DNA of 64,000 nt, from assembly GCA_043811395.1 (NCBI GenBank), contig JBDRNE010000025.1, positions 7,137 to 71,136 on the forward strand. The letters run 5' to 3'. This document shows positions 3,430 to 58,964 of this stretch, piece after piece. The position numbers and the translations under genes were made by a program. The notes beneath the pieces were generated by a model that made no database searches, was not told the DNA's origin, and was given only the letters and a program-made list of their open reading frames with translations. Each line of letters begins with the position of its first letter. Positions within the stretch are counted from its first letter, which is position 1. This stretch comes from Candidatus Omnitrophota bacterium (GTDB lineage Bacteria > Omnitrophota > Gorgyraeia > Tantalellales > Tantalellaceae).

Positions 3430-3876
3430 ATCACAGAGAGTCCTCAGATTGTTTTGAAAATAGGACATGTTCCGGATTTCATGACAATAGATGAGTTAAA
3501 AGACCTGATGGATGGAGGCTACAAGCAGTTTTATTACAGGGCATTCTATTATCTTAAAAAGTTTAATGAACATAAGGTTTTTTGAAGATCTTAGAAAAAA
3601 CATAGTGGGGGCGCTTGGGTTTATGGGGATAGGCAAAGCATGATGAGATTTTTTTGTAGATTTTAGTTAAGTTTCCCCTCTCCATGTTAAGTCTTAAAAA
3701 GTTATTTTTCATTTCCTCTTTGGTTTTGATGACGTATCGCTAGAACGTTTCATTATATTTTGTACTTTGTGTAGCATAACTGCGTAACAAATTTCTTTTC
3801 AAAAAATGCAATATTACGAGAAATATTCGGGTTAAAAGCTTACAGATTTTATGTGAATTGGTTCCACGAAAGAGTC

Positions 3877-3906
3877 TTGACAGTATGTATATGTGTATTA
3901 TACAAT
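3877..3906 (+). promoter_or_regulatory. candidate sigma70-type promoter (TTGACA - 18 nt - TACAAT) in the 611-bp gap upstream of the epimerase gene
   Basis: TTGACA at 3877-3882 and TACAAT at 3901-3906, separated by 18 nt. It lies in the only long non-coding gap (3430-4040) of the left half of the locus. Confidence 0.35.
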
Positions 3907-4040
3907 AACGTCGTTTTGTTCGTTGAGTGTGTGTAAGATATTAAGAGGAAAACATTTAGAAGCCAATAAGCTTATCAGAATCTAATTGATGCTACTGATA
4001 ATTGGCTGAATCCAAAGTTTTTATAACTAGAGGATAGAAA

Positions 4041-5054
4041 TTGAGGACGGAAAATACGGAGAGGAAAGTAATTGTTACCGGTGGAGCTGGGTTTATCGGA
4101 TCACATCTTGTTGATTATCTCGTAGAAAAAGGATGTGAGGTTACTGTAATTGATAATTTTTCAACCGGTAGAAGGTCTAATCTTAAACATATCATTAGTA
4201 ATATCAGATTGGTCGAAGCAGATGTTACGAATTTTGAAGCTATTTTGCCCCATTTCCAAAATAAAGACATAGTTTTTCATTTAGCCGCTTTAGCGGATAT
4301 AGTTCCCTCTATTGTAAATCCTCTTAATTATTACCGGTCTAATGTTAATGGTACTATCAATGTAATGGAAGCTGTACGTTTGTCCAAAGTCAAAAAAGTG
4401 GTCTATTCAGCGTCTTCTTCGTGTTATGGTATTCCCTCCGAAGAACCTCGCCCGACATCTGAAACAGATCCAATAAATCCGCAGTATCCTTACGCGCATA
4501 CTAAATTTTTGGGAGAAGAAATAGTTCTGCATTATGGTAAAATTTATGAAATGCCAGTTGTTTCTTTGCGGTTATTTAATGTTTATGGTCCAAGGTCAAG
4601 AACATCAGGTACTTATGGAGCGGTTTTTGGGGTGTTTTTGGCTCAGAAACTTAAAAATAGTCCGTATACTGTCGTTGGCGACGGTACGCAGACACGTGAT
4701 TTTATTTATGTAAGAGACGTAGCGCATGCTTTCGCGAAAGCCGGGTTTTCGGATGTTAAAAATGAAGTATTTAATGTGGGATCCGGCAATCCTCAGAGTG
4801 TGAATAAACTGGTTTCACTTTTGGGAGGAGATAAGATTCACATACCTAAAAGACCGGGAGAGCCGGAATATACCTGGGCGGACATAAGTAAAATAGCGGA
4901 ACGTCTTTCTTGGCAGGCGGAAGTGTCTTTTGAAGAAGGTGTTGAGAGAATCGTGAAAAAAATTGATTATTGGCAGTCAGCTCCGGTTTGGACACCAGAT
5001 ACGATCGAAAATGAAACAAAAGAGTGGTTTCGGTATTTGACGAAAGGTGTATAG
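4041..5054 (+). CDS. NAD-dependent epimerase/dehydratase (extended SDR; UDP-sugar 4-epimerase / UDP-glucuronate decarboxylase-like)
   Basis: TTG start at 4041 with AGGATAG RBS. N-terminal Rossmann motif VTGGAGFIGSH; Yxx(x)K-type catalytic region (YAHTKFLGE); length 337 aa. Confidence 0.75.
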   Translation: MRTENTERKVIVTGGAGFIGSHLVDYLVEKGCEVTVIDNFSTGRRSNLKHIISNIRLVEADVTNFEAILPHFQNKDIVFHLAALADIVPSIVNPLNYYRSNVNGTINVMEAVRLSKVKKVVYSASSSCYGIPSEEPRPTSETDPINPQYPYAHTKFLGEEIVLHYGKIYEMPVVSLRLFNVYGPRSRTSGTYGAVFGVFLAQKLKNSPYTVVGDGTQTRDFIYVRDVAHAFAKAGFSDVKNEVFNVGSGNPQSVNKLVSLLGGDKIHIPKRPGEPEYTWADISKIAERLSWQAEVSFEEGVERIVKKIDYWQSAPVWTPDTIENETKEWFRYLTKGV

Positions 5055-6586
5055 TGAATCAGAAAGCATTAGAAAAAATAAAAACAATAGATGAATTATC
5101 CCTGATTTCGGAGACTCTAAAAAACGAAGGTCGAAAAATTGTTCAGTGTCACGGGGTGTTTGATCTTGTCCATTTAGGGCATATCAGGCATTTTAATTTG
5201 GCAAAAAAAGAAGCAGATGTTCTGATCATAACACTTACCGCTGACAAGCATGTCAAGAGAGGTCCCGGGCGGCCTGTTTTTAATGAACATTTAAGAGCGG
5301 AAACATTGGCGTCACTTGCTGTTAGCGATTATGTGTGTGTTATGGATTTTCCAACAGCTATCGAGGCTATTAAGCGGATTAAACCTGATATCTATGCGAA
5401 AGGGCTTGATTATAAAGAAAAGAGTAAAGATGTTACCGGCAAGATTTATGATGAAGAAGAGGCTGTTCGTGCTGTCGGTGGAGAAGTAGTGTTTACGGAC
5501 GACATTACTTTCAGTTCTTCAAATTTGATAAATAGTTATCTTGATGTGTATCCGCCCAAAACCATTAAATATTTAAAAGCTATAGCAAAAAGGCATAGCA
5601 CGGATTTAATAGTAGAAAGTCTCAATTTATTAAAAGATTTAAAAGTACTGGTTATCGGGGATGCTATTGTTGATCAGTATCACTATTGCACGCCCATGGG
5701 GAAGTCTTCTAAGGAACACCTGGTTGCGAACAGATACGTTTCAAAAGAAATGTTTGCCGGAGGAAGTTTGGCTACGGCAAACAATGTAGCAAGTATTTGT
5801 GATAAAGTGGATCTTTTGACAGTATTAGGAGAAAAGAGTTCTTTTCAGGAGTTTATTGAAAATCGTTTAGTTGAGAACGTCAATCCCGTATTTTTTTATC
5901 GGTCGGATACCGGGACTATCGTTAAAAGAAGGTTTGTCAGCCAAGGGGTTAATCGGAAACTTTTTGAAATTTGTTATATGAAAGATGATGATATTTCATT
6001 GCCGGCAGAAACGAAAATACTAGAACATCTTAAAAAAAATATTGAAAATTATGATTTGGTTGTTGTCTCTGATTTTGGGCATGGGCTTATGACAAAAAGG
6101 ATTATTGATTTTATTTGTGAAAACGCGAAATACCTGGCGCTTAATGTTCAGACAAATAGCGCCAATATCGGGTTTAACCTTGTAACAAAATACCCAAAAG
6201 CGGATTGTGTATGTGTTGATGAAATGGAGCTCAGGTTTGCCACGCATGATAGATTCAGCGATTTGCGTACACACGCGAAGGATATTTACGGGCGTCTTGG
6301 GTGCAGGCATATTATTGCCACTCGTGGCGCTCATGGTTCATTGTGTTATTCAAAAGAAGACGGGTATCATGAAACGCCCGCGTTTTCATACCGGGTTATT
6401 GACGCGATAGGCGCGGGAGACGCGTTTTTCGCGTTTGTAGCGCCGTGCTTTGCTAAAGGGTTTCCTCAGGACTTAGTGTCATTTATCGGCAATAGTGTCG
6501 GGTCATTGGCGGTTCAAATAGTATGTAACAGGGAACCCGTGAAATCAGTGGATTTAATAAAATTTATTACGCGGCTTTTAAAATGA
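5054..6586 (+). CDS. bifunctional sugar-phosphate nucleotidyltransferase / PfkB-family sugar kinase, HldE(RfaE)-like but with reversed domain order (cytidylyltransferase-like N-terminus, ribokinase-like C-terminus)
   Basis: N-terminus carries the nucleotidyltransferase HxGH motif (CHGVFDLVHLGHIRHF) as in RfaE domain II. The C-terminal half is a PfkB/ribokinase fold with the DAIGAGDAF anion-hole/ATP motif. Probable start is GTG 5054, overlapping the upstream TAG (TAGTG); the track ORF begins at the in-frame GTG 5024. Confidence 0.65.
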   Translation: MNQKALEKIKTIDELSLISETLKNEGRKIVQCHGVFDLVHLGHIRHFNLAKKEADVLIITLTADKHVKRGPGRPVFNEHLRAETLASLAVSDYVCVMDFPTAIEAIKRIKPDIYAKGLDYKEKSKDVTGKIYDEEEAVRAVGGEVVFTDDITFSSSNLINSYLDVYPPKTIKYLKAIAKRHSTDLIVESLNLLKDLKVLVIGDAIVDQYHYCTPMGKSSKEHLVANRYVSKEMFAGGSLATANNVASICDKVDLLTVLGEKSSFQEFIENRLVENVNPVFFYRSDTGTIVKRRFVSQGVNRKLFEICYMKDDDISLPAETKILEHLKKNIENYDLVVVSDFGHGLMTKRIIDFICENAKYLALNVQTNSANIGFNLVTKYPKADCVCVDEMELRFATHDRFSDLRTHAKDIYGRLGCRHIIATRGAHGSLCYSKEDGYHETPAFSYRVIDAIGAGDAFFAFVAPCFAKGFPQDLVSFIGNSVGSLAVQIVCNREPVKSVDLIKFITRLLK

Positions 6587-7161
6587 AACAAGACATTAAA
6601 CAATATTTTGGAGTTTTAAAATCTCTTTTTGATGAAGTTATCGTTACAGCCGAGGGCGGCGTGGTATGCCAGTTTAATGAAGCTATCAAAATGGCGGTAG
6701 AACTTATTTTGGATCAGGCTGGGCTTGGCGGGAAAGTTTTATTTGTGGGTAATGGCGCGAGCGCCGCGATTTCAAGTCATATGGCAACGGATTTTTGGAA
6801 AAATGCCGGGGTAAAAGCTCTTTCGTTTAATGACAGTTCATTGCTGACGTGTATAAGTAATGATTTTGGATATAAGCATGTCTTTGAAAAACCTGTTGAA
6901 ATGTTTGCCGAAAGTGAAGACGTTTTAGTCGCGATTTCAAGTTCAGGAGAGTCTGAAAACATTTTGAACGCGGTAAGCGCGGCAAAAAAAATAGGGCTTA
7001 AAATTGTGACTTTGTCAGGATTTAAAGATAATAATCCTTTAAGAAAAATGGGAGACATAAATTTTTATATGCCTTCAGTAAGTTACGGGCATGTTGAGAT
7101 AACGCATCTTTCGGTGTGTCATTGTATGTCTGATATCATAAAGGTTGGTAAAAATGGATAA
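6583..7161 (+). CDS. gmhA: D-sedoheptulose-7-phosphate isomerase (SIS domain, GmhA)
   Basis: 192 aa SIS-domain protein with VLFVGNGASAAISSHMATDF and SSSGESENIL motifs typical of GmhA. ATGA overlap with the upstream gene. Confidence 0.75.
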   Translation: MKQDIKQYFGVLKSLFDEVIVTAEGGVVCQFNEAIKMAVELILDQAGLGGKVLFVGNGASAAISSHMATDFWKNAGVKALSFNDSSLLTCISNDFGYKHVFEKPVEMFAESEDVLVAISSSGESENILNAVSAAKKIGLKIVTLSGFKDNNPLRKMGDINFYMPSVSYGHVEITHLSVCHCMSDIIKVGKNG

Positions 7162-8227
7162 GTACAAGATTGACGATCATAAGCTTATGTATCATGTCTC
7201 AAGGGTAAATGATTGGTTGAATGGTAAAATTGTTTATCCGATATACATGGAAATATGTCCTTCAGGCGCGTGCAATCATAGATGCACTTATTGTGCTTAT
7301 GATTTTGCCGGGTATAAGAATAAGTTTTTAGAGACTGAAGTATTAAAAAAGAAATTATCGGAGTTAGGTGCCAGAGGACTAAAAAGCGTTGTGTATGCAG
7401 GTGAGGGCGAACCTTTTTTACATCCTGATATGGCGGATATAATAAGTCATACTGCAAAGTCGGGTATAGATGTCGGCATTGCAACGAATGCGGTGTTTTT
7501 TAATGAAGAAACAGCAGAAAAAACACTTAAAGATATTACTTGGCTCAAAGTCAGTATTTCCGGGGCGACGGAAGACACCTATAGAAAAATACACAGGTCG
7601 AAGCCTGGAGATATTTCCCGTGTTATTAACAATATGAAAACCGCTTCAGAAATAAAGAGAATAAAAGGTTATTCCTGCACTCTTGGTATGCAACTCTTAC
7701 TTTTGCCGGAAAATTGTAACGAAGCCGTAGATTTAGTTAAATTGGCTCGGGATATTGGAATGGATTACGTGGTCATAAAGCCTTACTCACAGCATCCGCA
7801 GAGCAAGACCACGAAATATAATTCTGTGAAGTATAGCGAATATGAACATTTAGGAGACAAAATTGCTCAATTAAATACAAACAAATTTAGTGCTGTTTTC
7901 AGAATACAAACAATGCGTGAATGGGACAGCGGAAATAGTGTACGCGGGTACAATCGATGTCTTTCAACCCCTTTTTGGTCGTATATTGATATGGAAGGCA
8001 ATGTGTGGGGATGCGCAATATATTTGGGTGATGAAAAGTTTTTGTATGGAAATATTTATGAAGAGTCTTTTCAGGAAATTTGGCAAGGGAAAAAACGTAA
8101 AAAATCTCTCGCATGGATGGAAAATGAGTTAGATATTTCCAAGTGCAGAGTTAATTGCCGGATGAATAAGATAAATAAGTATCTGTGGGATTTAAAAAAC
8201 CTGCCGGAACATGTAAATTTTATATAA
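7154..8227 (+). CDS. radical SAM enzyme with C-terminal Cys-rich (SPASM/twitch-like) extension
   Basis: CxxxCxxC motif CNHRCTYCAY near the N-terminus and glycine-rich SAM motif (VVYAGEGEPF). C-terminal cysteines (GCAIYLG ... KCRVNCRMN). Paralogous to the 12376 gene. Start ATG 7154 follows AAGGTTGG. Confidence 0.7.
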   Translation: MDKYKIDDHKLMYHVSRVNDWLNGKIVYPIYMEICPSGACNHRCTYCAYDFAGYKNKFLETEVLKKKLSELGARGLKSVVYAGEGEPFLHPDMADIISHTAKSGIDVGIATNAVFFNEETAEKTLKDITWLKVSISGATEDTYRKIHRSKPGDISRVINNMKTASEIKRIKGYSCTLGMQLLLLPENCNEAVDLVKLARDIGMDYVVIKPYSQHPQSKTTKYNSVKYSEYEHLGDKIAQLNTNKFSAVFRIQTMREWDSGNSVRGYNRCLSTPFWSYIDMEGNVWGCAIYLGDEKFLYGNIYEESFQEIWQGKKRKKSLAWMENELDISKCRVNCRMNKINKYLWDLKNLPEHVNFI

Positions 8228-8378
8228 CCCGAATTTCGCGTTAATCGGAATTCGCCTTTTGAAATTGTCATTCCCCTGTTTTCACAGGGGCAGGCTATGC
8301 GAAAGCAGGAATCTAGAAGGATATAGATTCTGGATTAAATTCGGGATGGCAACATTTTTGAAGAAGGGACCGGTCTTT

Positions 8379-8410
8379 CCCCCCTTTGAAAAAGGGGGTT
8401 AGGAGATTTT
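8379..8410. terminator. GC-rich hairpin (CCCCCCTTT-gaa-AAAGGGGG) followed by a T-rich tail; member of a repeat shared with 50093-50212; probable intrinsic terminator of the upstream operon segment
   Basis: 8-bp G/C stem at 8380-8387 / 8391-8398 with a 3-nt loop, then TTAGGAGATTTTAATT. Two further hairpins lie at 8273-8290 and 8309-8330 in the same 223-bp gap. Confidence 0.35.
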
Positions 8411-8450
8411 AATTAATGTCTGATTTTTAAATAAACAACGGTAAAAACAA

Positions 8451-9284
8451 ATGCATGACTTAGAAAAAAAAGCTAAAGAACTAAGACGCGTTATAGTAAA
8501 AACAATTTGTAATGGCGGCGGGGGGCATACTCCCGCTTCTCTTTCAATAGTTGAAATATTAACGGTTCTTTATTACAAAATTTTAAATATTGATCCTAAT
8601 AATTTGAAATCTCTAGAAAGAGACCGGTTTATCTTAAGTAAAGGGCATGCGGGTGTGGCTTTATACGCGATTCTTGCCGAAAAAGGTTTTTTCCCGAAAG
8701 AAGAGCTTAATACCTTTGGTCAAAAAGGAACAATTTTAGGCGGGCATCCCGATATGCATAAAATTCCAGGAGTGGAAGCTTCAACAGGCGCTCTTGGTCA
8801 CGGATTTTCGTTTGGCGCGGGGATAGCTTTAGCGGGTAAACTTGATAAAAAAAATTACAGGGTTTTTGCGCTTTTAGGAGATGGAGAATGCCAGGAAGGT
8901 TCTATCTGGGAAACAGCTTTATTCGCGCCGCAACATGGTCTTGATAATCTAATTGCAATAATTGATTATAACAAATATCAGGCGTTGGATAATTTGGAAA
9001 AAATAGTTTCGTTAGGCGCGTTGGCTGATAAATGGAAAGCATTCGGTTGGGAAGTAAAAGAAGTTGATGGTCATGACATAACTGAGTTAACGAAAGTCTT
9101 AAAAAAAGTTCCTTTTTCTTTTGGTAAACCAAGTGTCGTAATCGCGAATACCATTAAAGGTAAAGGCGTGTCTTTTATGGAAAACGTGCCGATTTGGCAT
9201 TACAGACTGCCGAATGAAAAGGAAATGAAAATATTATGTAAAGAACTTGAAATAACAATGGATGAAAGGGTAGCTTCTGAATGA
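8451..9284 (+). CDS. transketolase, N-terminal (thiamine-diphosphate-binding) subunit
   Basis: 277 aa with GHTPASLSIVEIL, SKGHAGVALYA, GALGHGFSFGAGIA and LGDGECQEGSIWE, the canonical split-transketolase A subunit motifs. Confidence 0.85.
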   Translation: MHDLEKKAKELRRVIVKTICNGGGGHTPASLSIVEILTVLYYKILNIDPNNLKSLERDRFILSKGHAGVALYAILAEKGFFPKEELNTFGQKGTILGGHPDMHKIPGVEASTGALGHGFSFGAGIALAGKLDKKNYRVFALLGDGECQEGSIWETALFAPQHGLDNLIAIIDYNKYQALDNLEKIVSLGALADKWKAFGWEVKEVDGHDITELTKVLKKVPFSFGKPSVVIANTIKGKGVSFMENVPIWHYRLPNEKEMKILCKELEITMDERVASE

Positions 9285-10228
9285 GAGATGCTTATTTGCG
9301 TGCTTTATATAGTTTAGCCAAAAACGATGAACGAATTTTCGCGCTTGTCGCGGATAATGGCGCGATTGTTTATGACAAGTATCGGCAAGATTTTCCGGAA
9401 AGGTTCATTAATTTTGGCATAGCGGAAGCCAATATGGTAAGCGTTGCCGCGGGTCTTGCTTCATGCGGGAAAGTACCTTTCGCGTATACCATTTCTAATT
9501 TCATCACAATGCGCGCGTTTGAACAGGTAAGAAACGATGTTTGTATGCAAAAAATGAATGTTAAATTAGTTGGTATCGGTGCGGGGTTTGTTTATAGCAA
9601 TTTAGGACCTACGCATCACGCTGTTGAGGATATCGCCCTTATGTCGGTTTTACCGGGCATGACAATTTTTTCCCCGGCAGATCCAATAGAAGCCTATGAA
9701 GCAACCATAGCCTCAGCAGAGATAAATGGACCAGTATATTTGCGTCTTGCAACCGGTGGCACGCCTGTAATTTACAAAGAAGATTATGAATTTAATCCCG
9801 GCAAGGGTGTGATCTTAAGGGAAGGTAGAGATGTCGCAGTTATTACCACAGGCAATATCACGCATGAAGTTATTCTTGCTATAGATGAACTTAAAAGAGA
9901 AGGCATATCAGTGCGCCTAATAAATATGCATACGATAAAACCTATTGATAAACAGATTATAGTTAAAGCGGCTGAAGATACCGGGGCTATTTTGACTATT
10001 GAGGAACATTCACTTTTTGGCGGGTTAGGTAGTTTGGTATCATTGATTTTAGTTGAAACAGATGTTTCGGTAAGTTTCAAGAGTTTAGGGTTCGACAATA
10101 CTTTTCCAGAAGGGTATGGAACATATCAGGATATGAAAAAAATGAATGGTCTTTCAAAAGATGATTTTATAAGAGAAACAAAACTTCTTTATGAAAGAAA
10201 AATGCAGAAAAACGGAATAGTGTTTTAG
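9281..10228 (+). CDS. transketolase, C-terminal (pyrimidine-binding / C-terminal domain) subunit
   Basis: 315 aa; ATGA overlap with the N-terminal subunit; FGIAEANMVSVAAGLA and GPTHHAVEDIALM motifs. Confidence 0.85.
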   Translation: MRDAYLRALYSLAKNDERIFALVADNGAIVYDKYRQDFPERFINFGIAEANMVSVAAGLASCGKVPFAYTISNFITMRAFEQVRNDVCMQKMNVKLVGIGAGFVYSNLGPTHHAVEDIALMSVLPGMTIFSPADPIEAYEATIASAEINGPVYLRLATGGTPVIYKEDYEFNPGKGVILREGRDVAVITTGNITHEVILAIDELKREGISVRLINMHTIKPIDKQIIVKAAEDTGAILTIEEHSLFGGLGSLVSLILVETDVSVSFKSLGFDNTFPEGYGTYQDMKKMNGLSKDDFIRETKLLYERKMQKNGIVF

Positions 10229-10242
10229 GGTAAAAGGAAATT

Positions 10243-11688
10243 ATGGGGGGAAAGAACGAAATAAAAAAGGTATTATTGGTTTCGCCAAGGTTTAATAAAG
10301 GCAGACATCAAATATCTATTCATCCTTTGGCAGGTCTTGGGTATATTGCCGAATCTTTAAAAAATAACGGTTTTGAAGTTAATGTTTTCGACATGAACTT
10401 GCAGTATTCTGAAAAGGATTTGGCAGAGAAAATACATAGTTTTCTTCCCGATATGGTAGGTTTTTTGATTATGACTTTTGGCTATAAAGATACTTATCGT
10501 CTGATTGAAGGAGTTAAAGAGCTGGAGCCGAATGTTAAAATTGCTGTTGGTGGACCACATATTTCTACTTTAAAAGAAAAGGTTTTACAGGAATGCTCCG
10601 CAATTGATTATGGCGTTTTGCTCGAAGGTGATAAAAGTTTTGTTAGGTTGTGTCTTAATGACGACGTAAAGAATATTCCGGGGATAGTTTATCGCGCGGA
10701 AGGTAAAATAAGAAAAAATGAGTTTAATGAATTTATTGAAAATCTAAATGAATTACCTTTTCCTAGATATGAAGCATTTGAACTTGAAAAGTACCCTGTT
10801 AAACAGATAGGCATTGTTACTTCAAGGGGGTGCCCGTATAAGTGCATATATTGTCCGGTAGTTTCTGCCATAGGTCGAAAATTTAGAGCTAGGAACGCTG
10901 ACAATATTGCAGAAGAAATAGAATATTGGCACAGTAAAGGATACAGAGAAATTCTTATTTTGGACGACAATTTTACTTTAGTTCGTTCACGCGTGGAAGA
11001 ATTATGTTGGTTGCTTATAAACAAAGATTTAAAAGACATTAGACTTAAATGTCCCAATGGTATAAGAGCTGATAAAACAGATTATGAACTTTTAAAGCTT
11101 ATGCGAAAAGCCAGGTTTGATATGATCTCTTTTGGAGTGGAATCTGCCAGTAGTAAGGTTTTAAAAAATATAAATAAAGACGAGAATATTGATGTAATAG
11201 AAGAAGCTATAAAAAACGCGTGTAGTTTAGGGTTTGAAGTTAGCCTGTTTTTTATAATAGGTTCTCCGGGAGAAACCCCGGAAGATGTTCAAAAGTCTTT
11301 TTCTTTGGCATTAAAATATCCAGTTGCTGTCAGTAATTTTTATAATATTATTCCGTTTCCTGATACAGAACTTTTTGACTGGATTAGTAAAAATAAATAT
11401 TTCTTGCGTCCATTGGAAGACATTATGAATAACGCGTCACATTTTATAAATGAGCCCTGTTTTTTTACGCCTGAAATGTCTTACGAAGAAAGAAAGCGCG
11501 CTTTTAAAAATGGTAAGAAAATTTCGAAAATTATACGAAAAAGGTTTATCGAAAAAAAACTAAAGGGTCCTGAAGTTTTAAAGAGATTGTTCAGCTGTAT
11601 TTACACTATTGGGGTTGTGGAACAAGTTTTAACGACAAATAAATCTGTAATAAAACTGAAGGAAAAATTGAAACAAGCAGTTTGTTAA
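10243..11688 (+). CDS. cobalamin (B12)-binding domain radical SAM enzyme (class B)
   Basis: N-terminal B12-binding Rossmann-like region (KKVLLVSP...GLGYIAESLKNNGFEV...IAVGGPHIS) followed by SRGCPYKCIYCPV (CxxxCxxC) and an elongated radical SAM core. Confidence 0.8.
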   Translation: MGGKNEIKKVLLVSPRFNKGRHQISIHPLAGLGYIAESLKNNGFEVNVFDMNLQYSEKDLAEKIHSFLPDMVGFLIMTFGYKDTYRLIEGVKELEPNVKIAVGGPHISTLKEKVLQECSAIDYGVLLEGDKSFVRLCLNDDVKNIPGIVYRAEGKIRKNEFNEFIENLNELPFPRYEAFELEKYPVKQIGIVTSRGCPYKCIYCPVVSAIGRKFRARNADNIAEEIEYWHSKGYREILILDDNFTLVRSRVEELCWLLINKDLKDIRLKCPNGIRADKTDYELLKLMRKARFDMISFGVESASSKVLKNINKDENIDVIEEAIKNACSLGFEVSLFFIIGSPGETPEDVQKSFSLALKYPVAVSNFYNIIPFPDTELFDWISKNKYFLRPLEDIMNNASHFINEPCFFTPEMSYEERKRAFKNGKKISKIIRKRFIEKKLKGPEVLKRLFSCIYTIGVVEQVLTTNKSVIKLKEKLKQAVC

Positions 11689-11701
11689 CGAAGGAGCACA
11701 A

Positions 11702-12364
11702 ATGGGAAGCCTTCTAAATGTAATAACGCCGCTTCATAAAAGGGCAAAAAGAGATTATGTCGCGAGGATGATAAAAGATAAAGTCGATTGTTCCCGAATT
11801 GCCCGCCAATATGGAAAAGATTATTGGGATGGTGACAGAAAATACGGGTATGGCGGGTATAAATATGACGGTAGATGGAGTGTTGTTGCACAAGGGTTAA
11901 TTGATTTATATAAACTTCCAGTAAATGCAAAGATTTTAGATGTTGGGTGCGGGAAAGGGTTTCTTTTGTATGAATTAAAAAAACTTCTGCCCCGTGCGGA
12001 AATAAAAGGATTTGACATTTCAAGCTATGCAATTGAAAATTCAAAGGAAGAGGTCCGGGATAGTTTGTTTGTGCATAAAGCAGAGGACGAGTTTCCTTTT
12101 AATGACAAAGAATTTGATCTGGTTATTTCGATCTCAACGCTTCACAATTTGTGCGTGGGCGACTTAAAAAGCGCTCTCAAAGAAATTGAGAGAACCGGCC
12201 GGAATAAGTATGTTACGATGGAAGCTTACAGGAACGAAGAAGAACTTTTTAATCTCGAGTGTTGGGCATTGACTTGTGAATCGTTTTTTAGACCCGAAGA
12301 ATGGCAGTATTTGTTTAATGAGTTTGGGTATTCGGGTGATTTTGAATTTATTTATTTTGAATAA
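11702..12364 (+). CDS. class I SAM-dependent methyltransferase
   Basis: Motif I ILDVGCGKGFLL, acidic motif II (EIKGFDIS), motif III (FDLVISISTLHNL). AAGGAG RBS 6 nt upstream of ATG 11702. Confidence 0.65.
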   Translation: MGSLLNVITPLHKRAKRDYVARMIKDKVDCSRIARQYGKDYWDGDRKYGYGGYKYDGRWSVVAQGLIDLYKLPVNAKILDVGCGKGFLLYELKKLLPRAEIKGFDISSYAIENSKEEVRDSLFVHKAEDEFPFNDKEFDLVISISTLHNLCVGDLKSALKEIERTGRNKYVTMEAYRNEEELFNLECWALTCESFFRPEEWQYLFNEFGYSGDFEFIYFE

Positions 12365-12375
12365 TAAGAGGGGTT

Positions 12376-13446
12376 ATGGGGAATATTTATACTAAAATGA
12401 AAATATTTCATTTCAAAGAAAAAATAGATTCTCTTCCAAGGGAAAAAGGAAAAGTTTTAGCGCCTATTCACATCAGAATAAAACCGACAAATGTGTGCAA
12501 TCATAACTGTTCGTATTGCGCGTATAGGGCGGACGATTTGCAGTTGGGCAAAGACATGGTTCAGCGTGATTTTATTTCTAAAGAAAAAATGATGGAAATA
12601 ATTGATGATGTAATTGAAATGGGGGTTAAAAGTGTTACTTTCTCCGGCGGGGGAGATCCTTTTTGTTATCCATATCTTTTTGACGCGGCAAAAAGATTAT
12701 CCGAATCAGATGTTAAATTTGCTTCACTTACAAATGGGGCTTTGCTGGACGGGGAAAAAGCTGAAATTTTCGCGAAAAACGCTTCCTGGATTCGAATTTC
12801 TATGGATGGGTGGGATGACGAAAGTTATTCTGAGTATCGGGGGGTACCCAAAGGAGAATTTACGAAAGTTTTGAATAACATAAAAAATTTTAAAACGTAT
12901 AATGGTGCCTGTTTTTTAGGGGTTTGTATTATTGTTGATAAAAAAAATGCGTCACATGTATATGAATTAGCGGAACAAATAAGAGAGAGCGGGGCTAATA
13001 GCGTGAAAATAGCGCCGTGTATTGTTAGTAACAGCGGTAAAGAGAATAATGAGTATCATGAGCCTATATTTGATAAAGTTAAAGTAGAGATTGCTCGAGT
13101 TATAAAAAAACTTGGTGATGTTGATTTTGAGATATTTGATTCATACCACGGACAACTAGAAACTTTTGAAAAAGAATATTCATGGTGCCCGTATCTGCAG
13201 ATTTTGCCTGTTATTGGCGCGGATCTCAATATTTATCCGTGTCAGGATAAGGCTTATAATCTTGACGAAGGGCTGATAGGATCTATAAAAGAAGTCAGGT
13301 TTAAAGATTTTTGGTTTTCTGATAAAAATAAGTTTTTTAAAGTTAATCCTTCGCGGCATTGCGCGCATCATTGCGTGGCAGACGGCAAAAATAAACTCAT
13401 TTTAGATTACTTGAATGTAGACAAAAATCATATGGGGTTTGTATAA
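12376..13446 (+). CDS. radical SAM enzyme with C-terminal Cys-rich (SPASM/twitch-like) extension; paralog of 7154-8227
   Basis: CNHNCSYCAY cluster, SFSGGGDPF SAM-binding motif, C-terminal cysteines (WCPYLQ ... YPCQDK ... HCAHHCV). Confidence 0.7.
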   Translation: MGNIYTKMKIFHFKEKIDSLPREKGKVLAPIHIRIKPTNVCNHNCSYCAYRADDLQLGKDMVQRDFISKEKMMEIIDDVIEMGVKSVTFSGGGDPFCYPYLFDAAKRLSESDVKFASLTNGALLDGEKAEIFAKNASWIRISMDGWDDESYSEYRGVPKGEFTKVLNNIKNFKTYNGACFLGVCIIVDKKNASHVYELAEQIRESGANSVKIAPCIVSNSGKENNEYHEPIFDKVKVEIARVIKKLGDVDFEIFDSYHGQLETFEKEYSWCPYLQILPVIGADLNIYPCQDKAYNLDEGLIGSIKEVRFKDFWFSDKNKFFKVNPSRHCAHHCVADGKNKLILDYLNVDKNHMGFV

Positions 13447-13462
13447 CCAAAAGAAGTATCGG

Positions 13463-14482
13463 ATGTATTTAAAAAAAACGAAATTGCATAAACGTCAAAG
13501 GTTGCATAGAGCCGGAGATTTGAGAACTATTTCGCTTGATGTGACATCCCTGTGTAGTATGAATTGTCCTCATTGTTATGCTGAATCATTTGTAAATGCG
13601 AAACCTATAGAACTTGATGTTTTGAAGCGCGCCATGGACGAAGCATATGAACTTGGTGTATTTCACTATGTTTTTCAGGGAGGAGAGCCCATTGAGGATC
13701 CTGAGAGGTTGGAAGCGATATTTCGCATGTGTTATCCTGATGAAACTTACATGAATGTTGTAAGTAACGGGTGGCACATGAATCGTGATATGATACGTTG
13801 GCTAAAGAGTTTAAAGGTTGATAAAATTGCTTTTAGTCTGGATTCGGGGATAGAAGAAGAACATGATAAGAACAGGCGAGCGGGTTCTTATAACAGAGTT
13901 CTTGAGGCCGTGGATATTGTTTTGGGAGAAGGTCTTTTAACATCCATTTCTATCGTAGTTACCCATCACTCTTTGCATTCGGCAGGATTCAAGGCCGCGT
14001 ATGATTATGCCGAAAGTAAAGGAATAAGACTGGATGTGCAGATAGCCGAACCTGTCGGAAAGTGGGATGGCAACACAACATGTCTTATGACTCCCGACGA
14101 TTCTCTGTATATCAAGGAATTGCAAAGAAAAGCTCCTATCTTAAAAAACGGACAATGTATGGTGAATCGCGATATTTTTTGCGGAGAACAAGATCATTGT
14201 CCCGCCGGAACCGAATTTATGGGGCTTTCCATTGACGGTGAGTTATTGCCGTGTAATTTTCTTCAATTCAGCGTAGGGAATATACGCAAGGAAACAATAG
14301 GAGAAATGCGTAGGAAATTGTTGACGAATCATTGGTTTTGGGGACAACACCCTTGTTGCTTATGTGGAGAAGATCCTGACTTTATAAATTCATTTATTAC
14401 TCCTTATGTCGGGCAGAAAAAACCGCTTGATGCGAACAAAATCTTTAATTTAATGAAAGGGGCAGAGCATGGGAGAGTTTGA
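13463..14482 (+). CDS. radical SAM / SPASM-domain enzyme
   Basis: CSMNCPHCYA cluster and FQGGEP motif; C-terminal SPASM-like cysteine pattern (FCGEQDHCPAG ... LPCNF ... HPCCLCGE). Track ORF begins at TTG 13439; ATG 13463 is preferred. Confidence 0.65.
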   Translation: MYLKKTKLHKRQRLHRAGDLRTISLDVTSLCSMNCPHCYAESFVNAKPIELDVLKRAMDEAYELGVFHYVFQGGEPIEDPERLEAIFRMCYPDETYMNVVSNGWHMNRDMIRWLKSLKVDKIAFSLDSGIEEEHDKNRRAGSYNRVLEAVDIVLGEGLLTSISIVVTHHSLHSAGFKAAYDYAESKGIRLDVQIAEPVGKWDGNTTCLMTPDDSLYIKELQRKAPILKNGQCMVNRDIFCGEQDHCPAGTEFMGLSIDGELLPCNFLQFSVGNIRKETIGEMRRKLLTNHWFWGQHPCCLCGEDPDFINSFITPYVGQKKPLDANKIFNLMKGAEHGRV

Positions 14483-15236
14483 TGGTTTTAAGAAAACAGG
14501 GATAGATTCAGATGTTGAAAAGGACCTGGAAAAGCATTTTCGCAGATTTAATATTGGCCCCTTGGATGCGCTTAAACTTTTTCCCGTACTTGCTCGCCGG
14601 CAGTGGTTGAAGCGATTCTTAGCCCATGTTGAGCTGTTCCAAAAGACCTTAGATGTGCCTGGGGATATTGCGGAGTTGGGAGTCTTTCGCGGATTGGGTC
14701 TTATGACGTGGGCTAATTTGCTGGAAGCCTACTGCATAGGGGACCGCACAAAGATTGTTTATGGGTTTGACAATTGGAAGGGGTTTACTGAACTTGATCC
14801 AGAAGACGGAAAAGACTCTACCTCAGTTCAAAAGTTTGTTGGTGGGTTTTCTCCGGAAAAATACTATAACGAGATAAAACAAGCGATTGCCATTTTTGAT
14901 AAAGACAGATTTATTCCATGGAAACCACGTGTAAAATTGGTCAAAGGAGATGTAGTAAAAACAGTACCAAAATTTATAAAAGAGAATCCAGGAACACGTT
15001 TTTCTTTGATTCATTTTGATTGCGATCTATATCGTCCTACGAAGATTGCACTAGAAGTTCTATGGCCTGTTTTGTCTCGAGGTGGAGTAATGTTGTTCGA
15101 TGAATATTCTATTTCGGAATGGCCGGGAGAAACCAGAGCTGTTGATGATTTTTTTAACAACAAAGCAAATGTTAGGATCAAGGCGCTTTCGTGGACCAAT
15201 GCTCCAGCAGGCTATGTTATTAAGGGAAGCGATTGA
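14469..15236 (+). CDS. TylF/MycF/NovP-family sugar O-methyltransferase (class I SAM MT)
   Basis: 255 aa with ELGVFRG(L) SAM-binding motif and DCDLYRPT metal/substrate motif resembling macrocin O-methyltransferases; overlaps the upstream gene by 14 nt. Confidence 0.55.
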   Translation: MGEFDGFKKTGIDSDVEKDLEKHFRRFNIGPLDALKLFPVLARRQWLKRFLAHVELFQKTLDVPGDIAELGVFRGLGLMTWANLLEAYCIGDRTKIVYGFDNWKGFTELDPEDGKDSTSVQKFVGGFSPEKYYNEIKQAIAIFDKDRFIPWKPRVKLVKGDVVKTVPKFIKENPGTRFSLIHFDCDLYRPTKIALEVLWPVLSRGGVMLFDEYSISEWPGETRAVDDFFNNKANVRIKALSWTNAPAGYVIKGSD

Positions 15237-15381
15237 GGGGGATAATAAAAAGCCCACCGCTCAAATAGGAGAGGAAAGTGGTAGGGGGGGCGCATAGGAA
15301 CTATGTTGTTGATTTTGGTTCTTTTTTTGAAAACGTACTGTATAAACGAGGCGATATCATAAAGAGGCAGGTGGGGGACGT

Positions 15382-16287
15382 TTGACATATTTGATAGTAG
15401 GATCGGACAGTCTTATCGGAGGGGCTTTGATGTCCGAGTTGAAACGGACTGGCAGGCAGGTAATAGGGACGACAAGGCGCCGCGAAACCGTAGATACGGA
15501 TCATTTTTATCTTGACCTATTAAAAGACCCCGGAACGTGGAATTGTCCCGATTTTGTTACTGTTGCTTTTGTCTGTGCCAGTGTAACCAGGATCGAAAGT
15601 TGTAGACGTGATCCAGTTGAAAGCGCTCGTGTGAACGTAAAAGGAATATTCGAATTGGTTAGGAATTTGACTGAGAAGGGGATATTTGTGATTTACCTGT
15701 CGACGAATCAGGTGTTTGACGGGACGGTACCACATCGTTTGCCAGATGATCAATTGTCTCCCATTACAGAATATGGAAAACAGAAGGCAGAAGCCGAACG
15801 CTTGATCAGCCGGTTTGATCCTCTTGTTGCGATTGTACGTTTTTCAAAGATTTTGGAACCGAGGAATCCGCTTTTTTGCGAGTGGCAAAGGCTTCTTCGA
15901 AAAGGGAAAGTTATTCATCCTTTTTTCGATATGGTTATGGCTCCGGTGGGGCTTGCTTGTGCGGTTTCCATATTATCGATTATGGGAGAACATTGTTTAC
16001 CCGGTATTTTTCAAGTGTCCGGAAATGAGGACGTTTCGTATGCCGAAGTTGCCCATATAGGAGCGACAATATGTGGCGTAGATGAAAGATTAGTACAGCC
16101 GGTTCTTTCATCCAGATCCGGGTGTTATTTAGAAAAAGTAGTCGAACACACGACTATGGATGTGACCAGGTTAAAATTAGTTTTTGGAGTAGAAATACCG
16201 GATGTAAGAACTACAATTAAGACAATATTTACTGAACTACTGGCATTCGAAGAACGTTCTGTATCTCTGAAAAAAGGAGAATATTAA
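15382..16287 (+). CDS. RmlD-like NAD(P)-dependent sugar reductase/epimerase (dTDP-4-dehydrorhamnose reductase family)
   Basis: TTG start; N-terminal LIVGSDSLIGGAL nucleotide-binding loop; YGKQK catalytic YxxxK; ~300 aa, typical RmlD size. Locally higher GC than the rest of the window. Confidence 0.55.
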   Translation: MTYLIVGSDSLIGGALMSELKRTGRQVIGTTRRRETVDTDHFYLDLLKDPGTWNCPDFVTVAFVCASVTRIESCRRDPVESARVNVKGIFELVRNLTEKGIFVIYLSTNQVFDGTVPHRLPDDQLSPITEYGKQKAEAERLISRFDPLVAIVRFSKILEPRNPLFCEWQRLLRKGKVIHPFFDMVMAPVGLACAVSILSIMGEHCLPGIFQVSGNEDVSYAEVAHIGATICGVDERLVQPVLSSRSGCYLEKVVEHTTMDVTRLKLVFGVEIPDVRTTIKTIFTELLAFEERSVSLKKGEY

Positions 16288-16289
16288 TA

Positions 16290-17474
16290 ATGCCAACAAA
16301 CCCGGTCGAAATGTGTGTGTTATGTGGTCACGATACTTTTAAAGAATTTTCCCAATCTATGCGGTTAAAGTCTGTTACTTCGGATTGTAAATTCTGGGAT
16401 TGTGGCGGAATTATCGAGGTTTGCGAATATTGCGGGCATATCCAAAAACGAATGGATCCTTTGTGGAGGGAAGAAGTATCTCGGATATATGCCAACTATA
16501 CGATATACCACTTAAGTGAGGGGAAAGAACAGGTTGTTTTTGATGATGATAGTTCAGCAGTTTTTCCCCGGTCCTTGCGGATATTTGAGTCCTTGGAAGG
16601 ACAAGTTAACATATCGGAGCAAGGTTGTTTGATGGATGTGGGATGCGGAAATGGAGAATTACTGTGTTTGTTCAATAAAAAATATCCTGGGTGGGTTCTT
16701 GCTGGATACGAGCAGGACGAAAAATGTAGAGGAAATATTGTCCGAATACCTGGTGTGCGGCATTTTTATTCCGGCGAGATCGATCTGATCGATCAGATCG
16801 ATCAGAAATTTGATTTCATCACACTTATGGATGTTTTGGAACATGTATTCCAGCCAGTGCAGTTATTGAAACAGCTGCGTAGTAAGCTCGTTTCGGGCGG
16901 TATGGTACTTGTCCATGTGCCTGATTATTCACAGAATCCGTTTGATTTGTTAGTTATGGATCATTGTTCTCATTTTACACCGGAAACGCTCATCCAGACC
17001 GCCCGGCATTCTGGTTTTGAAGTAAGAGTTTTCGCTACGGACTGGATACCGCGATACATTACGGTTGTACTGTGTGTTACGAAAAACCAGGCCATGCAAA
17101 AGATCGCGAAAAGGGATCCGAAGGATGTGGCAAAAGCAGTGGCAGTTGATATCAAATGGTTGGAGGATGTGGTTGAGCACGCTCGTAAGAGTGCAGATAA
17201 GGGCGAGTTGGGTGTTTTTGGAACAGCGATAGCCGGAACTTGGCTGGCTGGCAGGTTGGGTTCCTTGGCATGTTTTTTTGTGGATGAAGATCCTATGAGA
17301 TTGGGGAAAACGCACATGGGTAGGGAAGTTATTCATCCGTTTGATGTGCTCGAAAACAACGAAGTATATTTACCCGTGGTGCCTGAAAAAGCTACACAAA
17401 TTAATAATCGCTTCAAAAGATCTGAAAAATTATTGAAACTTATTCTTCCTCCGATGTTTTCTAGCAAATTATGA
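16290..17474 (+). CDS. NDP-hexose C-methyltransferase-like enzyme (N-terminal Zn-ribbon, class I MT core, C-methyltransferase C-terminal domain; TylC3/EvaC-like architecture)
   Basis: CVLCGHD ... CEYCGH zinc-ribbon; LMDVGCGNGELL motif I; C-terminal GVFGTAIAGTWLAGRLG ... FFVDEDP Rossmann-like tail characteristic of sugar C-methyltransferases. AAAAGGAGAA RBS upstream. Confidence 0.55.
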   Translation: MPTNPVEMCVLCGHDTFKEFSQSMRLKSVTSDCKFWDCGGIIEVCEYCGHIQKRMDPLWREEVSRIYANYTIYHLSEGKEQVVFDDDSSAVFPRSLRIFESLEGQVNISEQGCLMDVGCGNGELLCLFNKKYPGWVLAGYEQDEKCRGNIVRIPGVRHFYSGEIDLIDQIDQKFDFITLMDVLEHVFQPVQLLKQLRSKLVSGGMVLVHVPDYSQNPFDLLVMDHCSHFTPETLIQTARHSGFEVRVFATDWIPRYITVVLCVTKNQAMQKIAKRDPKDVAKAVAVDIKWLEDVVEHARKSADKGELGVFGTAIAGTWLAGRLGSLACFFVDEDPMRLGKTHMGREVIHPFDVLENNEVYLPVVPEKATQINNRFKRSEKLLKLILPPMFSSKL

Positions 17475-17674
17475 ACAACTGTTTGCTAAGTTTTTTATGT
17501 TCTTTACAAGATAATTTAGAGCTATGTGGGCTAAATGGATGAATGGTTTGTTTGTGAGGTTAGTGGAGAAATTTTGATAAAGAATGTGTAAGTAAAAAGC
17601 TTTGAAACCACAACATTTTGTGGTTAACTGCGGTGTTTCCATAAAAACAGTACCTTGAATAGGAGACGTAGTTA

Positions 17675-21772: not shown

Positions 21773-21830
21773 CGCTTATTTTGTGAAACTTAACATAGAA
21801 AAAGGTTAATAGACTAATAAGGTGGTAAAG

Positions 21831-33039: not shown

Positions 33040-33057
33040 AATGGATAGAAGTATAGA

Positions 33058-33657: not shown

Positions 33658-33668
33658 AGGAGTTATTG

Positions 33669-34211: not shown

Positions 34212-34260
34212 TGTAAATGATATGACGTGATCGTGAATAAATATTTAAAAGAGAGGTGTT

Positions 34261-35259: not shown

Positions 35260-35283
35260 AATGATCTTGGATAGGGAGGAACA

Positions 35284-35514: not shown

Positions 35515-35522
35515 GGTATAAA

Positions 35523-57645: not shown

Positions 57646-57664
57646 TAGCATTCGCGGAATCAAT

Positions 57665-58963: not shown

Positions 58964-58964
58964 A

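Follow-up and report, generated by a model that had tools for sequence, protein, structure and literature searches.

Three twitch-like radical SAM proteins of a conserved glycan cassette in Omnitrophota and other bacteria, and their possible role in tailoring a heptose-like nucleotide sugar

Results

Genes of the locus

We analyzed a stretch of DNA of 64,000 nucleotides from Candidatus Omnitrophota bacterium (contig JBDRNE010000025.1; the whole stretch, numbered 1-64000, is referred to as the window) and focused on three of its genes, which encode the radical S-adenosylmethionine (SAM) proteins rSAM1, rSAM2 and rSAM3, and on the conserved gene cassette to which they belong. The original prediction for this locus, that the three open reading frames (ORFs) encode radical SAM enzymes of the non-B12 kind, was borne out, as Pfam Radical_SAM is found in all three and PF02310 in none. 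The motifs reported for two of the proteins, CNHRCTYCAY and CNHNCSYCAY, are both present, and the ATG starts at 7154 and 13463 agree with the N-termini of the respective families. The genes had also been described as interleaved with a methyltransferase; a methyltransferase is indeed encoded at 11702-12364, but the description left out a split transketolase-like pair (8451-10228) and a B12-binding radical SAM protein (10243-11688) that lie there as well. The genes of the cassette and those that directly follow it are:

4041-5054, + strand: extended short-chain dehydrogenase/reductase (SDR; NAD-dependent epimerase/dehydratase; Pfam Epimerase, 2.3e-61), the first gene of the conserved cassette
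5024-6586, + strand: HldE-like bifunctional protein (CTP_transf_like at residues 43-134, PfkB at 207-498)
6583-7161, + strand: GmhA-like SIS-domain sugar-phosphate isomerase (Pfam SIS_2, 4.9e-16); its end overlaps the start of rSAM1
7154-8227, + strand: rSAM1, putative twitch-type radical SAM protein, 357 amino acids (Pfam Radical_SAM, E 2e-21)
8451-9284, + strand: transketolase-like thiamine diphosphate (ThDP) enzyme, N-terminal (PP-domain) subunit (Transketolase_N, 1.7e-42)
9281-10228, + strand: transketolase-like ThDP enzyme, C-terminal subunit (Pyr and C-terminal domains; 246 bits against 6yaj)
10243-11688, + strand: B12-binding radical SAM protein (B12-binding, 6.4e-21; Radical_SAM, 2.6e-27), presumed to be of the C-methyltransferase class; no NCBIfam cut-off reached
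11702-12364, + strand: class I SAM methyltransferase, 220 amino acids (MT220; Methyltransf_31, 1.2e-19), the partner of rSAM2
12376-13446, + strand: rSAM2, putative twitch-type radical SAM protein, 356 amino acids (Pfam Radical_SAM, 1e-23)
13463-14482, + strand: rSAM3, twitch-like radical SAM protein, 339 amino acids (Pfam Radical_SAM, 6.1e-20)
14469-15236, + strand: TylF-family methyltransferase (Pfam TylF, 2.1e-15), overlapping the end of rSAM3
15382-16287, + strand: RmlD-like NAD(P)-dependent sugar-nucleotide ketoreductase (RmlD_sub_bind, 2.8e-26)
16290-17474, + strand: class I methyltransferase, 394 amino acids (Methyltransf_23, 2e-17)
17675-19009, + strand: TIGR04372-family glycosyltransferase (NCBIfam TIGR04372, 230 bits against a cut-off of 45)

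The genes upstream of rSAM1 had been taken for heptose genes. They are relatives of HldE and GmhA, but divergent ones that score far below the equivalog cut-offs (153 bits against 521 for NCBIfam HldE, and 108 against 209 for gmhA), and the domains of the HldE-like protein are swapped, with the nucleotidyltransferase N-terminal and the kinase C-terminal, the reverse of E. coli HldE. The SDR falls below every NCBIfam equivalog cut-off (GalE, 192 bits against 262) and the RmlD-like protein below that of rmlD (76 bits against 224). The TIGR04372 glycosyltransferase is the likely transferase for the sugar that the cassette makes. Cysteine pairs near the N-terminus of the 394-residue methyltransferase could possibly form a zinc ribbon.

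Three families outside the named radical SAM groups

rSAM1 and rSAM2 are, as had been proposed, paralogs, genuine but distant ones: they are nearly equal in length, align over their full lengths at 25% identity (E 3e-30) and share a pattern of conserved cysteines. The likeness of rSAM3 to either is confined to the radical SAM core. All three have large families of their own, which are unnamed and well conserved. rSAM1 has 5952 matches; among the 120 listed, identities are 59-67% and the sources are Omnitrophota, Planctomycetota (Scalindua, Brocadia), Elusimicrobiota and Actinomycetota; rSAM2 has 2080, with the best 120 at 66-77% identity; and rSAM3 has 272, including Azospirillum lipoferum, a Geobacter metagenome-assembled genome and Nitrospirota. 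A profile of rSAM1 and rSAM2 together retrieved 1987 representatives at E<=1e-30 among 1.84 billion, and an exact-match look-up of the rSAM2 sequence returned no match. Two proteins of the rSAM1/rSAM2 superfamily (P0436 and P0510) have an intein-type (Hint) domain inserted just past the start of the radical SAM core.

Membership in named families was judged by the cut-offs of NCBIfam models, and none was reached. The best match, the tungsten-cofactor maturase W_rSAM_matur, scores 91-96 bits against 380; the anaerobic sulfatase maturase model TIGR03942 scores at best 64.5 bits (rSAM2) against 349.45; DesII (TIGR04426) scores 61.9 bits against 450 and matches residues 21-204 of rSAM1 only; and prokaryotic viperin (NF038283) scores 45-57 bits against 180. 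The AprD4 diol dehydratase model NF033070 is not among the best 25 matches listed for any of the three proteins; it includes a B12-like N-terminal domain, and the B12-type neighbours match it at 59-80 bits against 500. The closest solved structures are 12-19% identical. Judged by these models, rSAM1-3 belong to no described named family, in agreement with the suggestion that they form new subfamilies.

Several homologs of rSAM1 nonetheless carry names, assigned automatically or by JGI, such as GTP 3',8-cyclase, cyclic pyranopterin phosphate synthase and wyosine synthetase, and MoaA is the top Foldseek match for rSAM3. Both observations could be taken to mean that the proteins are housekeeping cofactor enzymes, either MoaA, the GTP 3',8-cyclase, or a wyosine synthetase. 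We regard this as extremely improbable. The MoaA models, including TIGR02666 and TIGR02668, score 38-62 bits against cut-offs of 231-325 (284-325 for these two), the TM-score to MoaA is 0.57-0.60, and the genes lie in a glycan island, occur on a plasmid in some organisms and are patchily distributed. Since the MoaA models fall 5- to 7-fold below their cut-offs, the MoaA-type names on rSAM1 homologs are over-annotations.

Conserved cysteines, auxiliary cluster and fold

To describe cysteine conservation, each protein was aligned with its 120 best relatives (121 sequences). The cysteines of the radical SAM CX3CX2C motif are kept in 94-100% of relatives across the three families. In rSAM1 they are C40/C44/C47 (nucleotides 7271-7294) and in rSAM2 C41/C45/C48 (12496-12519), each 100% conserved; in rSAM3 they are C31/C35/C38 (13553-13576). 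Four further cysteines in the C-terminal part, C269, C287, C331 and C335 of rSAM1 (7958-8158) and C271, C289, C329 and C333 of rSAM2 (13186-13374), are likewise 100% conserved in the 121 sequences of each family and are spaced C-X12-G-X4-C ... C-X3-C. The set of three plus four cysteines recurs in essentially every complete row of a wider alignment (n=156: the 150 best representatives clustered at 50% identity, and 6 reference sequences). rSAM3 differs from this pattern, as only C246, C264 and C299 are invariant in the C-terminal part among 121 members (nucleotides 14198-14365, with C301). At the position of C301, 74% of relatives have cysteine and most of the rest Ile, Gly or Val; C240 is kept in 32%, and C232 and C298 in less than 5%. 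The fuller, SPASM-type cysteine array that had been ascribed to rSAM3 is therefore peculiar to the window's own sequence, its extra cysteines not being kept in the family.

The description of the three proteins as SPASM enzymes does not hold either. Pfam SPASM matches rSAM1 at 33.2 bits, above its cut-off, rSAM3 marginally (22.9 bits against 21.5) and rSAM2 at 17.0 bits, below it. The full seven-cysteine SPASM motif, CX9-15GX4C - gap - CX2CX5CX3C - gap - C, which ligates two auxiliary [4Fe-4S] clusters, is absent, there being no CX2CX5CX3C. What the proteins have is the arrangement of a twitch domain, by sequence and predicted secondary structure: a cysteine pair flanking a beta-hairpin right behind the core, then a helix followed by one or two cysteines. 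AlphaFold2 models of rSAM1 (pLDDT 87.5) and rSAM3 (pLDDT 92.2) both have an alternating beta/alpha core, with the first cysteine pair flanking a hairpin and a helix after it. In rSAM1, C269-X12-G282-X4-C287 encloses predicted strands 275-278 and 283-285, and predicted helices at 306-325 precede C331-X3-C335; in rSAM3, C246-X12-G259-X4-C264 encloses strands 252-255 and 260-262 (hairpin 252-262), and a predicted helix at 279-286 precedes C299 and, in most relatives, C301. One test set for the original prediction was whether the C-terminal cysteines fall on the ligand positions of auxiliary clusters. The first two do: when rSAM1 is aligned by profile with CteB, a SPASM enzyme of solved structure, C269 and C287 coincide with its CX9-15GX4C cysteines. 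Because only four (rSAM1 and rSAM2) or three (rSAM3) C-terminal cysteines are conserved, all three proteins look twitch-like rather than SPASM-like, and these cysteines would allow one auxiliary cluster at most.

The nearest solved folds to rSAM1 are DesII (the best match), BlsE and viperin. The best fold matches of rSAM3 are MoaA, SkfB and EpeE at TM-scores of 0.5-0.6, and it has no close structural relative. MoaA has an open iron site, and rSAM3 may, by analogy, have a site of the same kind.

A fifth cysteine, C175, is cysteine in only 50% of diverse representatives. We considered C175/C179 as the hydrogen-atom donor of an epimerase and rejected it at the level of the superfamily on account of this frequency and of the model, which places C175 at the start of strand 176-183, the end that, given the geometry of the barrel, presumably faces away from the active site. 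C175/C179 is conserved at 98-99% in the rSAM1 and rSAM2 families themselves, and a family-specific role is possible.

Several of the best sequence matches, in NCBIfam and among solved structures, are maturases (W_rSAM_matur, WgkB, SkfB, PqqE, CteB, anSME), and Pfam SPASM exceeds its cut-off in two of the proteins. These matches could suggest SPASM-type enzymes that mature peptides or proteins, in the manner of anaerobic sulfatase maturases, sactipeptide or ranthipeptide enzymes, or PqqE. We consider this very improbable, since the scores lie far below the curated cut-offs, the conserved C-terminal cysteines number four or three compared with seven in SPASM, and sugar enzymes are encoded around them and fused to them. 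Our domain scan of the window, which took in ORFs of at least 150 amino acids, found no sulfatase among them, and the 224-bp gap after rSAM1 contains only an unconvincing 47-codon ORF with a TTG start, the only small ORF checked. With these scores and scanned ORFs, the second test set for the original prediction, which would have counted close homology to anSME together with a cognate sulfatase nearby against it, did not go against it. On the strength of the sub-cut-off scores, the gap ORF and the domain scans we rejected a role in maturing sulfatases or RiPPs (peptides made by ribosomes and modified after translation), and both the peptide-maturase and the cofactor readings can be set aside.

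A conserved cassette of sugar enzymes

For the comparison of gene neighbourhoods, 80 metagenome loci were retrieved with rSAM1 alone as the query, and genome loci were added; since rSAM1 alone served as the query, the counts of its neighbours are unbiased. Of the 42 loci with enough flanking sequence, 35 have an HldE-like gene on the strand of rSAM1 and no more than 3.5 kb upstream of it, and a homolog of the SDR (at least 50% identity) is present within 5 kb upstream in 14 of 34. A transketolase subunit is encoded within 4 kb downstream in 26 of 40, and rSAM2 or rSAM-X, a third paralog 27-33% identical to rSAM1, in the flank of 25 of 29. For rSAM2, 9 of 13 loci have a transketolase subunit gene no farther than 3 kb away, and for rSAM-X, 20 of 24 have one within the 3 kb upstream.

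The cassette can be divided into three modules. Module A consists of the SDR, the HldE-like kinase/nucleotidyltransferase, the GmhA-like SIS isomerase and rSAM1; module B of the transketolase-like N and C subunits, the 220-residue methyltransferase and rSAM2, or alternatively rSAM-X; and module C of rSAM3 and the TylF methyltransferase, after which come the RmlD-like reductase, the 394-residue methyltransferase and the TIGR04372 glycosyltransferase. One metagenome locus (L093) has almost the gene order of the window. On plasmid pDCAR1 of Solidesulfovibrio carbinolicus DSM 3852 (L097), modules A and B stand in much the same order, with rSAM1 50% and rSAM2 58% identical to the window proteins, and the rSAM3/TylF pair is absent. 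The RmlD-like gene occupies the same position in L092, L093 and L097; homologs of the 394-residue methyltransferase gene follow it in L093 and precede it in L097, and homologs of the TIGR04372 glycosyltransferase gene lie downstream of the cassette in L014, L038 and on pDCAR1. A scan of genome contigs with one query sequence returned 2 loci. By metagenome loci and source names, on which the taxonomic picture rests, the cassette is found in Omnitrophota, anammox Planctomycetota, Elusimicrobiota, Desulfovibrionia, Geobacter and Azospirillum.

Proteins in which a domain of this superfamily is fused to another enzyme point the same way as the neighbourhoods. rSAM1-type domains are fused to a SIS domain (P0368, with 4 cluster members on contigs of up to 100 kb), to a cytidylyltransferase in three clusters defined at 50% identity (P0376, with 4 members, P0381 and P0393), to a methyltransferase (P0395) and to a ThDP enzyme of the acetolactate synthase (ALS) type (P0397). 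An rSAM2-type domain is fused to Transket_pyr (P0466), in a locus with a transketolase N-subunit gene before it and methyltransferase and SDR genes after it, and a protein of 1631 residues (P0392) combines a DegT sugar aminotransferase domain with two radical SAM domains. The fusions tie the superfamily to nucleotide activation, to sugar-phosphate isomerisation and to enzymes that consume sugar carbonyls (ThDP carboligases, DegT). Together with the HldE-like gene upstream of rSAM1, they agree with the view that these enzymes work in a sugar rather than a peptide setting.

The neighbourhoods also raise the possibility that rSAM2 and rSAM3 form two-component systems with the adjoining methyltransferases (MT220-rSAM2 and rSAM3-TylF), which would place methyl groups or methylene-derived groups on unactivated sugar carbons. 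The 220-residue methyltransferase directly adjoins rSAM2 in 11 of 13 loci, and the TylF methyltransferase gene comes directly after rSAM3, its start codon overlapping the rSAM3 stop codon, in the window and in 4 of 5 other loci; the methyltransferase fusion P0395 would suit methylation-related chemistry too, and there is a precedent in C10P/C10Q, the pair of a radical SAM enzyme and a methyltransferase-like protein in the cyclopropanation of CC-1065. That precedent involves a HemN-like enzyme, however, not a twitch-type one. Next to rSAM1 there is mostly no methyltransferase, fusions of the superfamily also involve SIS, cytidylyltransferase, ThDP and DegT domains, and the usual class of C-methylases is already represented in the island by six B12-binding radical SAM genes. 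We therefore consider such two-component systems unlikely.

Genes of the nonulosonic-acid type occur repeatedly near the cassette (pseB, pseC, pseF, acylneuraminate cytidylyltransferase and short NeuB-like proteins), at 86057-100528 of the pDCAR1 record, at 15109-16071 of L093 and at 24363-26520 of the window, where a PseC-like aminotransferase and a dehydratase are encoded. A link between the heptose-like sugar and a condensation of the NeuB type is possible.

The transketolase-like partner enzyme

The tightest linkage in the cassette, that of the radical SAM genes with the transketolase-like ThDP enzyme and with partner methyltransferases, was missed by the original prediction. The C-terminal subunit (9281-10228) resembles the split transketolase of Carboxydothermus (6yaj) and keeps the GIAE motif, which we take to hold the ThDP-activating glutamate. 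The substrate-site motifs of canonical transketolases in the Pyr domain are lost: DADLSKST is replaced by VADNGA-I and THAG..GEDGASHQ by IGAG..SNLGPTHH. In the E. coli and yeast transketolases these motifs presumably bind the substrate phosphate and the C2 hydroxyl of the acceptor. Nearly all cassette-linked C/Pyr subunits (loci L001-L097) have lost them in the same way, whereas two transketolase genes elsewhere in the loci keep them. The subtypes moreover track the radical SAM partner, as subunits with GDxGxG and YAPxGPTH accompany mostly rSAM2 and those with CDMGFG and YFKFLGPSHCC accompany rSAM-X. Many cassette-linked C/Pyr subunits are shortened to the Pyr domain alone, about 160 residues.

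A housekeeping transketolase that merely supplies sedoheptulose 7-phosphate was considered and found unlikely, since the substrate-site motifs are replaced and the subtype co-varies with the radical SAM partner. For the same reasons, the sequences favour a specialised ThDP enzyme that has co-evolved with the radical SAM proteins.

The surrounding glycan island

The remainder of the window forms an island of glycan assembly genes. The scanned ORFs include GT2 and GT4 glycosyltransferases, methyltransferases, sugar-nucleotide dehydratases, epimerases and aminotransferases, as well as an ABC exporter, a Wzy_C protein and a Glycos_transf_4 (PF00953) transferase, which we take to be an initiating enzyme of the WecA/MraY type. 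Nearly all ORFs of at least 150 amino acids are on the + strand, and GC skew across the window (1-64000) is positive in all 2-kb bins (0.12-0.32); by both measures the window is one long co-directional gene array. Five ORFs of 150-651 amino acids have no Pfam match (308-1531, 19817-21772, 30522-32330, 57596-58963 and 58920-59372); the product of 19817-21772 resembles a multi-pass membrane protein, judged from its sequence.

We scanned 3300-17800 for promoters and terminators. Promoter-like sites are no commoner than in shuffled sequence; one, with 11 of 12 matches, lies at 3877-3906, upstream of 4041. Terminator-like sites number 19 against 10.3 expected, and those listed fall within coding sequence. 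The layout fits a single operon.

The 64-kb island has six B12-binding radical SAM genes, unusually many for its length, and all of them fall short of the cut-offs of named NCBIfam families:

10243-11688: B12-binding radical SAM gene, within the cassette
21822-23411: B12-binding radical SAM gene
36314-37828: B12-binding radical SAM gene
44017-45480: B12-binding radical SAM gene
54063-55457: B12-binding radical SAM gene
55438-56856: B12-binding radical SAM gene

Their number suggests extensive C-methylation of the glycan. Three hexapeptide-repeat acyltransferase genes in a row and, after them, genes for a KAS III (FabH-like) protein and a FabG-like SDR (32365-36287) suggest a dedicated acyl substituent, and O-carbamoylation may be a further decoration, as a carbamoyltransferase of the NodU/CmcH type is encoded at 1621-3429, upstream of the cassette.

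Discussion

From their sequences and gene context, we are firm in regarding rSAM1-3 as radical SAM enzymes that have conserved cysteines for one extra iron-sulfur cluster and are dedicated to a glycan-building cassette. What they do there is a matter of lesser confidence. On balance, and by a modest measure, we favour the view that all three tailor a nucleotide-activated, heptose-like higher-carbon sugar destined for a lipid-linked cell-surface glycan, each probably having, beside the [4Fe-4S] cluster that cleaves SAM, one auxiliary cluster in a C-terminal twitch-type domain. The sugar that the cassette seems to make in these anaerobes would be an unusual and heavily methylated one. What the analysis shows is the genes, the conserved cysteines, the fold, the synteny and the fusions; the identity of the substrate, the site of hydrogen abstraction, the outcomes and the order of steps set out below are what we infer.

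In the mechanism that we propose, the HldE-like and SIS enzymes would supply a nucleotide-activated heptose-like sugar as the substrate. Reductive cleavage of SAM would produce the 5'-deoxyadenosyl radical, and this would take a hydrogen atom from a carbinol C-H bond of the sugar. The resulting alpha-hydroxyalkyl radical could then pass an electron to the auxiliary cluster and yield a keto or aldehyde sugar, as in BtrN, SpeY and the dehydrogenase mode of DesII, or it could lose a leaving group at the beta position, as happens in DesII and viperin. The carbonyl so formed would be used by the adjacent or fused enzyme: the transketolase-like enzyme could add a two-carbon unit to it, the RmlD-like enzyme could reduce it, with net epimerisation or deoxygenation, or it could be transaminated, and methylation would follow.

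The original prediction had proposed dehydration, epimerisation or deamination by the logic of DesII and AprD4. Sequence alone does not decide for each enzyme among these outcomes and oxidation; the logic of the twitch-type redox enzymes and epimerases BtrN, SpeY and HygY would fit at least as well, because DesII and AprD4 lack an auxiliary cluster. Twitch dehydrogenases and epimerases such as BtrN, SpeY and HygY typically have an auxiliary cluster ligated by cysteines throughout, while the lyases DesII, viperin and AprD4 have none, and by this analogy we lean toward oxidation for rSAM1 and rSAM2.

DesII, a TDP-4-amino-4,6-dideoxy-D-glucose deaminase/TDP-quinovose dehydrogenase (8hzv, 8hzy), is 16% identical to rSAM1. 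It has a single [Fe4S4] cluster, an N-terminal domain of six helices and a C-terminal beta-hairpin with two helices (PMC11434129). rSAM1 differs in having four invariant C-terminal cysteines and only a short N-terminal extension; judged from the model it looks like the DesII architecture with an iron-sulfur site in the C-terminal domain, and would be DesII-like in its working at most, not a member of the family. BtrN, a 2-deoxy-scyllo-inosamine dehydrogenase, SpeY (7wzv), and the epimerases HygY and AbmJ unite a radical SAM core and a twitch (abridged SPASM) domain that binds one auxiliary cluster, as rSAM1-3 probably do, and they carry out anaerobic oxidation or epimerisation at carbohydrate C-H bonds; BtrN and SpeY are among the fold and sequence matches. 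AbmJ, as cited in PMC9978623, is a radical SAM heptofuranose C3 epimerase. The SPASM enzymes anSME, CteB, SkfB, PqqE and SuiB have with rSAM1-3 a common ancestry of the C-terminal iron-sulfur domain, in which the CX9-15GX4C cysteines align, and their fold matches reach TM-scores of 0.55-0.65, but they have seven or eight conserved cysteines where rSAM1-3 have four or three, and rSAM1-3 have sugar enzymes as neighbours and fusion partners.

Several observations weigh against the role that we favour. Synteny and fusions establish a functional linkage but do not identify the substrate molecule, and a sugar phosphate or a lipid-linked glycan would fit them as well. The pairing of each radical SAM enzyme with a methyltransferase could point to methylation-related chemistry, and no description of the cassette was found in the full-text literature that we searched. 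The analogy with HldE and GmhA is incomplete, as no GmhB-type phosphatase was found among the scanned ORFs of the window, which casts doubt on the activation route; since in addition both proteins score below their cut-offs, their sugar product may differ from ordinary ADP-heptose.

The enzymes might thus act at another stage, on a free sugar phosphate such as sedoheptulose or heptose phosphate, or on an assembled lipid-linked or polymeric glycan. rSAM1 lies between a SIS isomerase and a transketolase-like enzyme, families that normally handle sugar phosphates, the SIS::rSAM fusions suggest the same stage, and the many conserved basic residues of rSAM1 would suit phosphates or diphosphates. 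Yet three independent fusions to cytidylyltransferases and the fusion to DegT point to nucleotide-linked keto-sugars, the enzymes with the nearest folds, DesII, BlsE and viperin, act on nucleotide or nucleoside substrates, and the transketolase-like enzyme of the cassette lacks the motifs that presumably bind phosphate in the canonical enzyme. A substrate at another stage consequently seems improbable to us, and a nucleotide-activated sugar the better candidate.

The linkage between the radical SAM and ThDP enzymes allows a more specific proposal, which we offer tentatively and think rather improbable. A twitch radical SAM enzyme would turn a hydroxyl group of the nucleotide-heptose into an aldehyde or ketone by oxidation, the auxiliary cluster serving as electron sink, and the co-evolved, in some cases fused, transketolase-like enzyme would add two carbons to the product, giving chain-extended or branched sugars; methylation and keto-reduction would come next, and then transfer by the TIGR04372 glycosyltransferase. 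By analogy, the nearest precedents would be the lincosamide octose pathway for the sugar-building module and DesII and BtrN for the radical step. In the lincosamide pathway LmbN is GmhA-like, and the kinase and nucleotidyltransferase steps come after it. The transaldolase LmbR and the isomerase LmbN of that pathway are described in PMC5854111, which cites Sasaki et al. 2012. The likeness lies in the making of a higher-carbon nucleotide sugar by a C-C-forming enzyme of the pentose-phosphate type together with an isomerase. The lincosamide route differs in relying on a transaldolase, in lacking a radical SAM enzyme and in belonging to an antibiotic pathway; the cassette enzyme, unlike LmbR, has lost its substrate-site motifs and may not act on sugar phosphates. 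For the ThDP step, YerE of yersiniose biosynthesis adds a two-carbon unit to the carbonyl of a nucleotide sugar. It is a possible analogy, and P0397 fuses a ThDP enzyme of the ALS/YerE type to an rSAM1-type domain; in yersiniose biosynthesis, however, the keto-sugar comes from NAD- and pyridoxamine phosphate-dependent enzymes, and the ThDP enzyme of the window is of the transketolase type.

Radical SAM enzymes that modify carbohydrates are an established kind, and rSAM1-3 are not categorically new. To our knowledge, such enzymes come almost only from antibiotic pathways (DesII, BtrN, AprD4, HygY, SpeY, AbmJ). Their setting here, a primary cell-surface glycan cassette that spans many anaerobic lineages and in which they are closely linked, and in some cases fused, to a transketolase-like ThDP enzyme, was not reported in the literature that we searched. 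As a whole, the original prediction was sound in assigning the proteins to sugar chemistry and to new subfamilies, and was mistaken in seeing SPASM domains where twitch domains are the better description, in the cysteine array of rSAM3 and in overlooking key partners.

If the proposed role is true, rSAM1-3 would represent a new branch of nucleotide-sugar chemistry in anaerobes. It would explain the recurrent genes in glycan loci that are unannotated or misannotated as "radical SAM protein" and "transketolase", and could account for unusual methylated or higher-carbon surface sugars of uncultured bacteria. If the coupling to the ThDP enzyme is also true, it would be the first functional pairing of a radical SAM and a ThDP enzyme in glycan biosynthesis, and an undescribed anaerobic route, common among uncultivated anaerobic lineages and found in some cultured bacteria too. 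As the cassette lies on a plasmid of the cultured S. carbinolicus DSM 3852, the question is directly testable.

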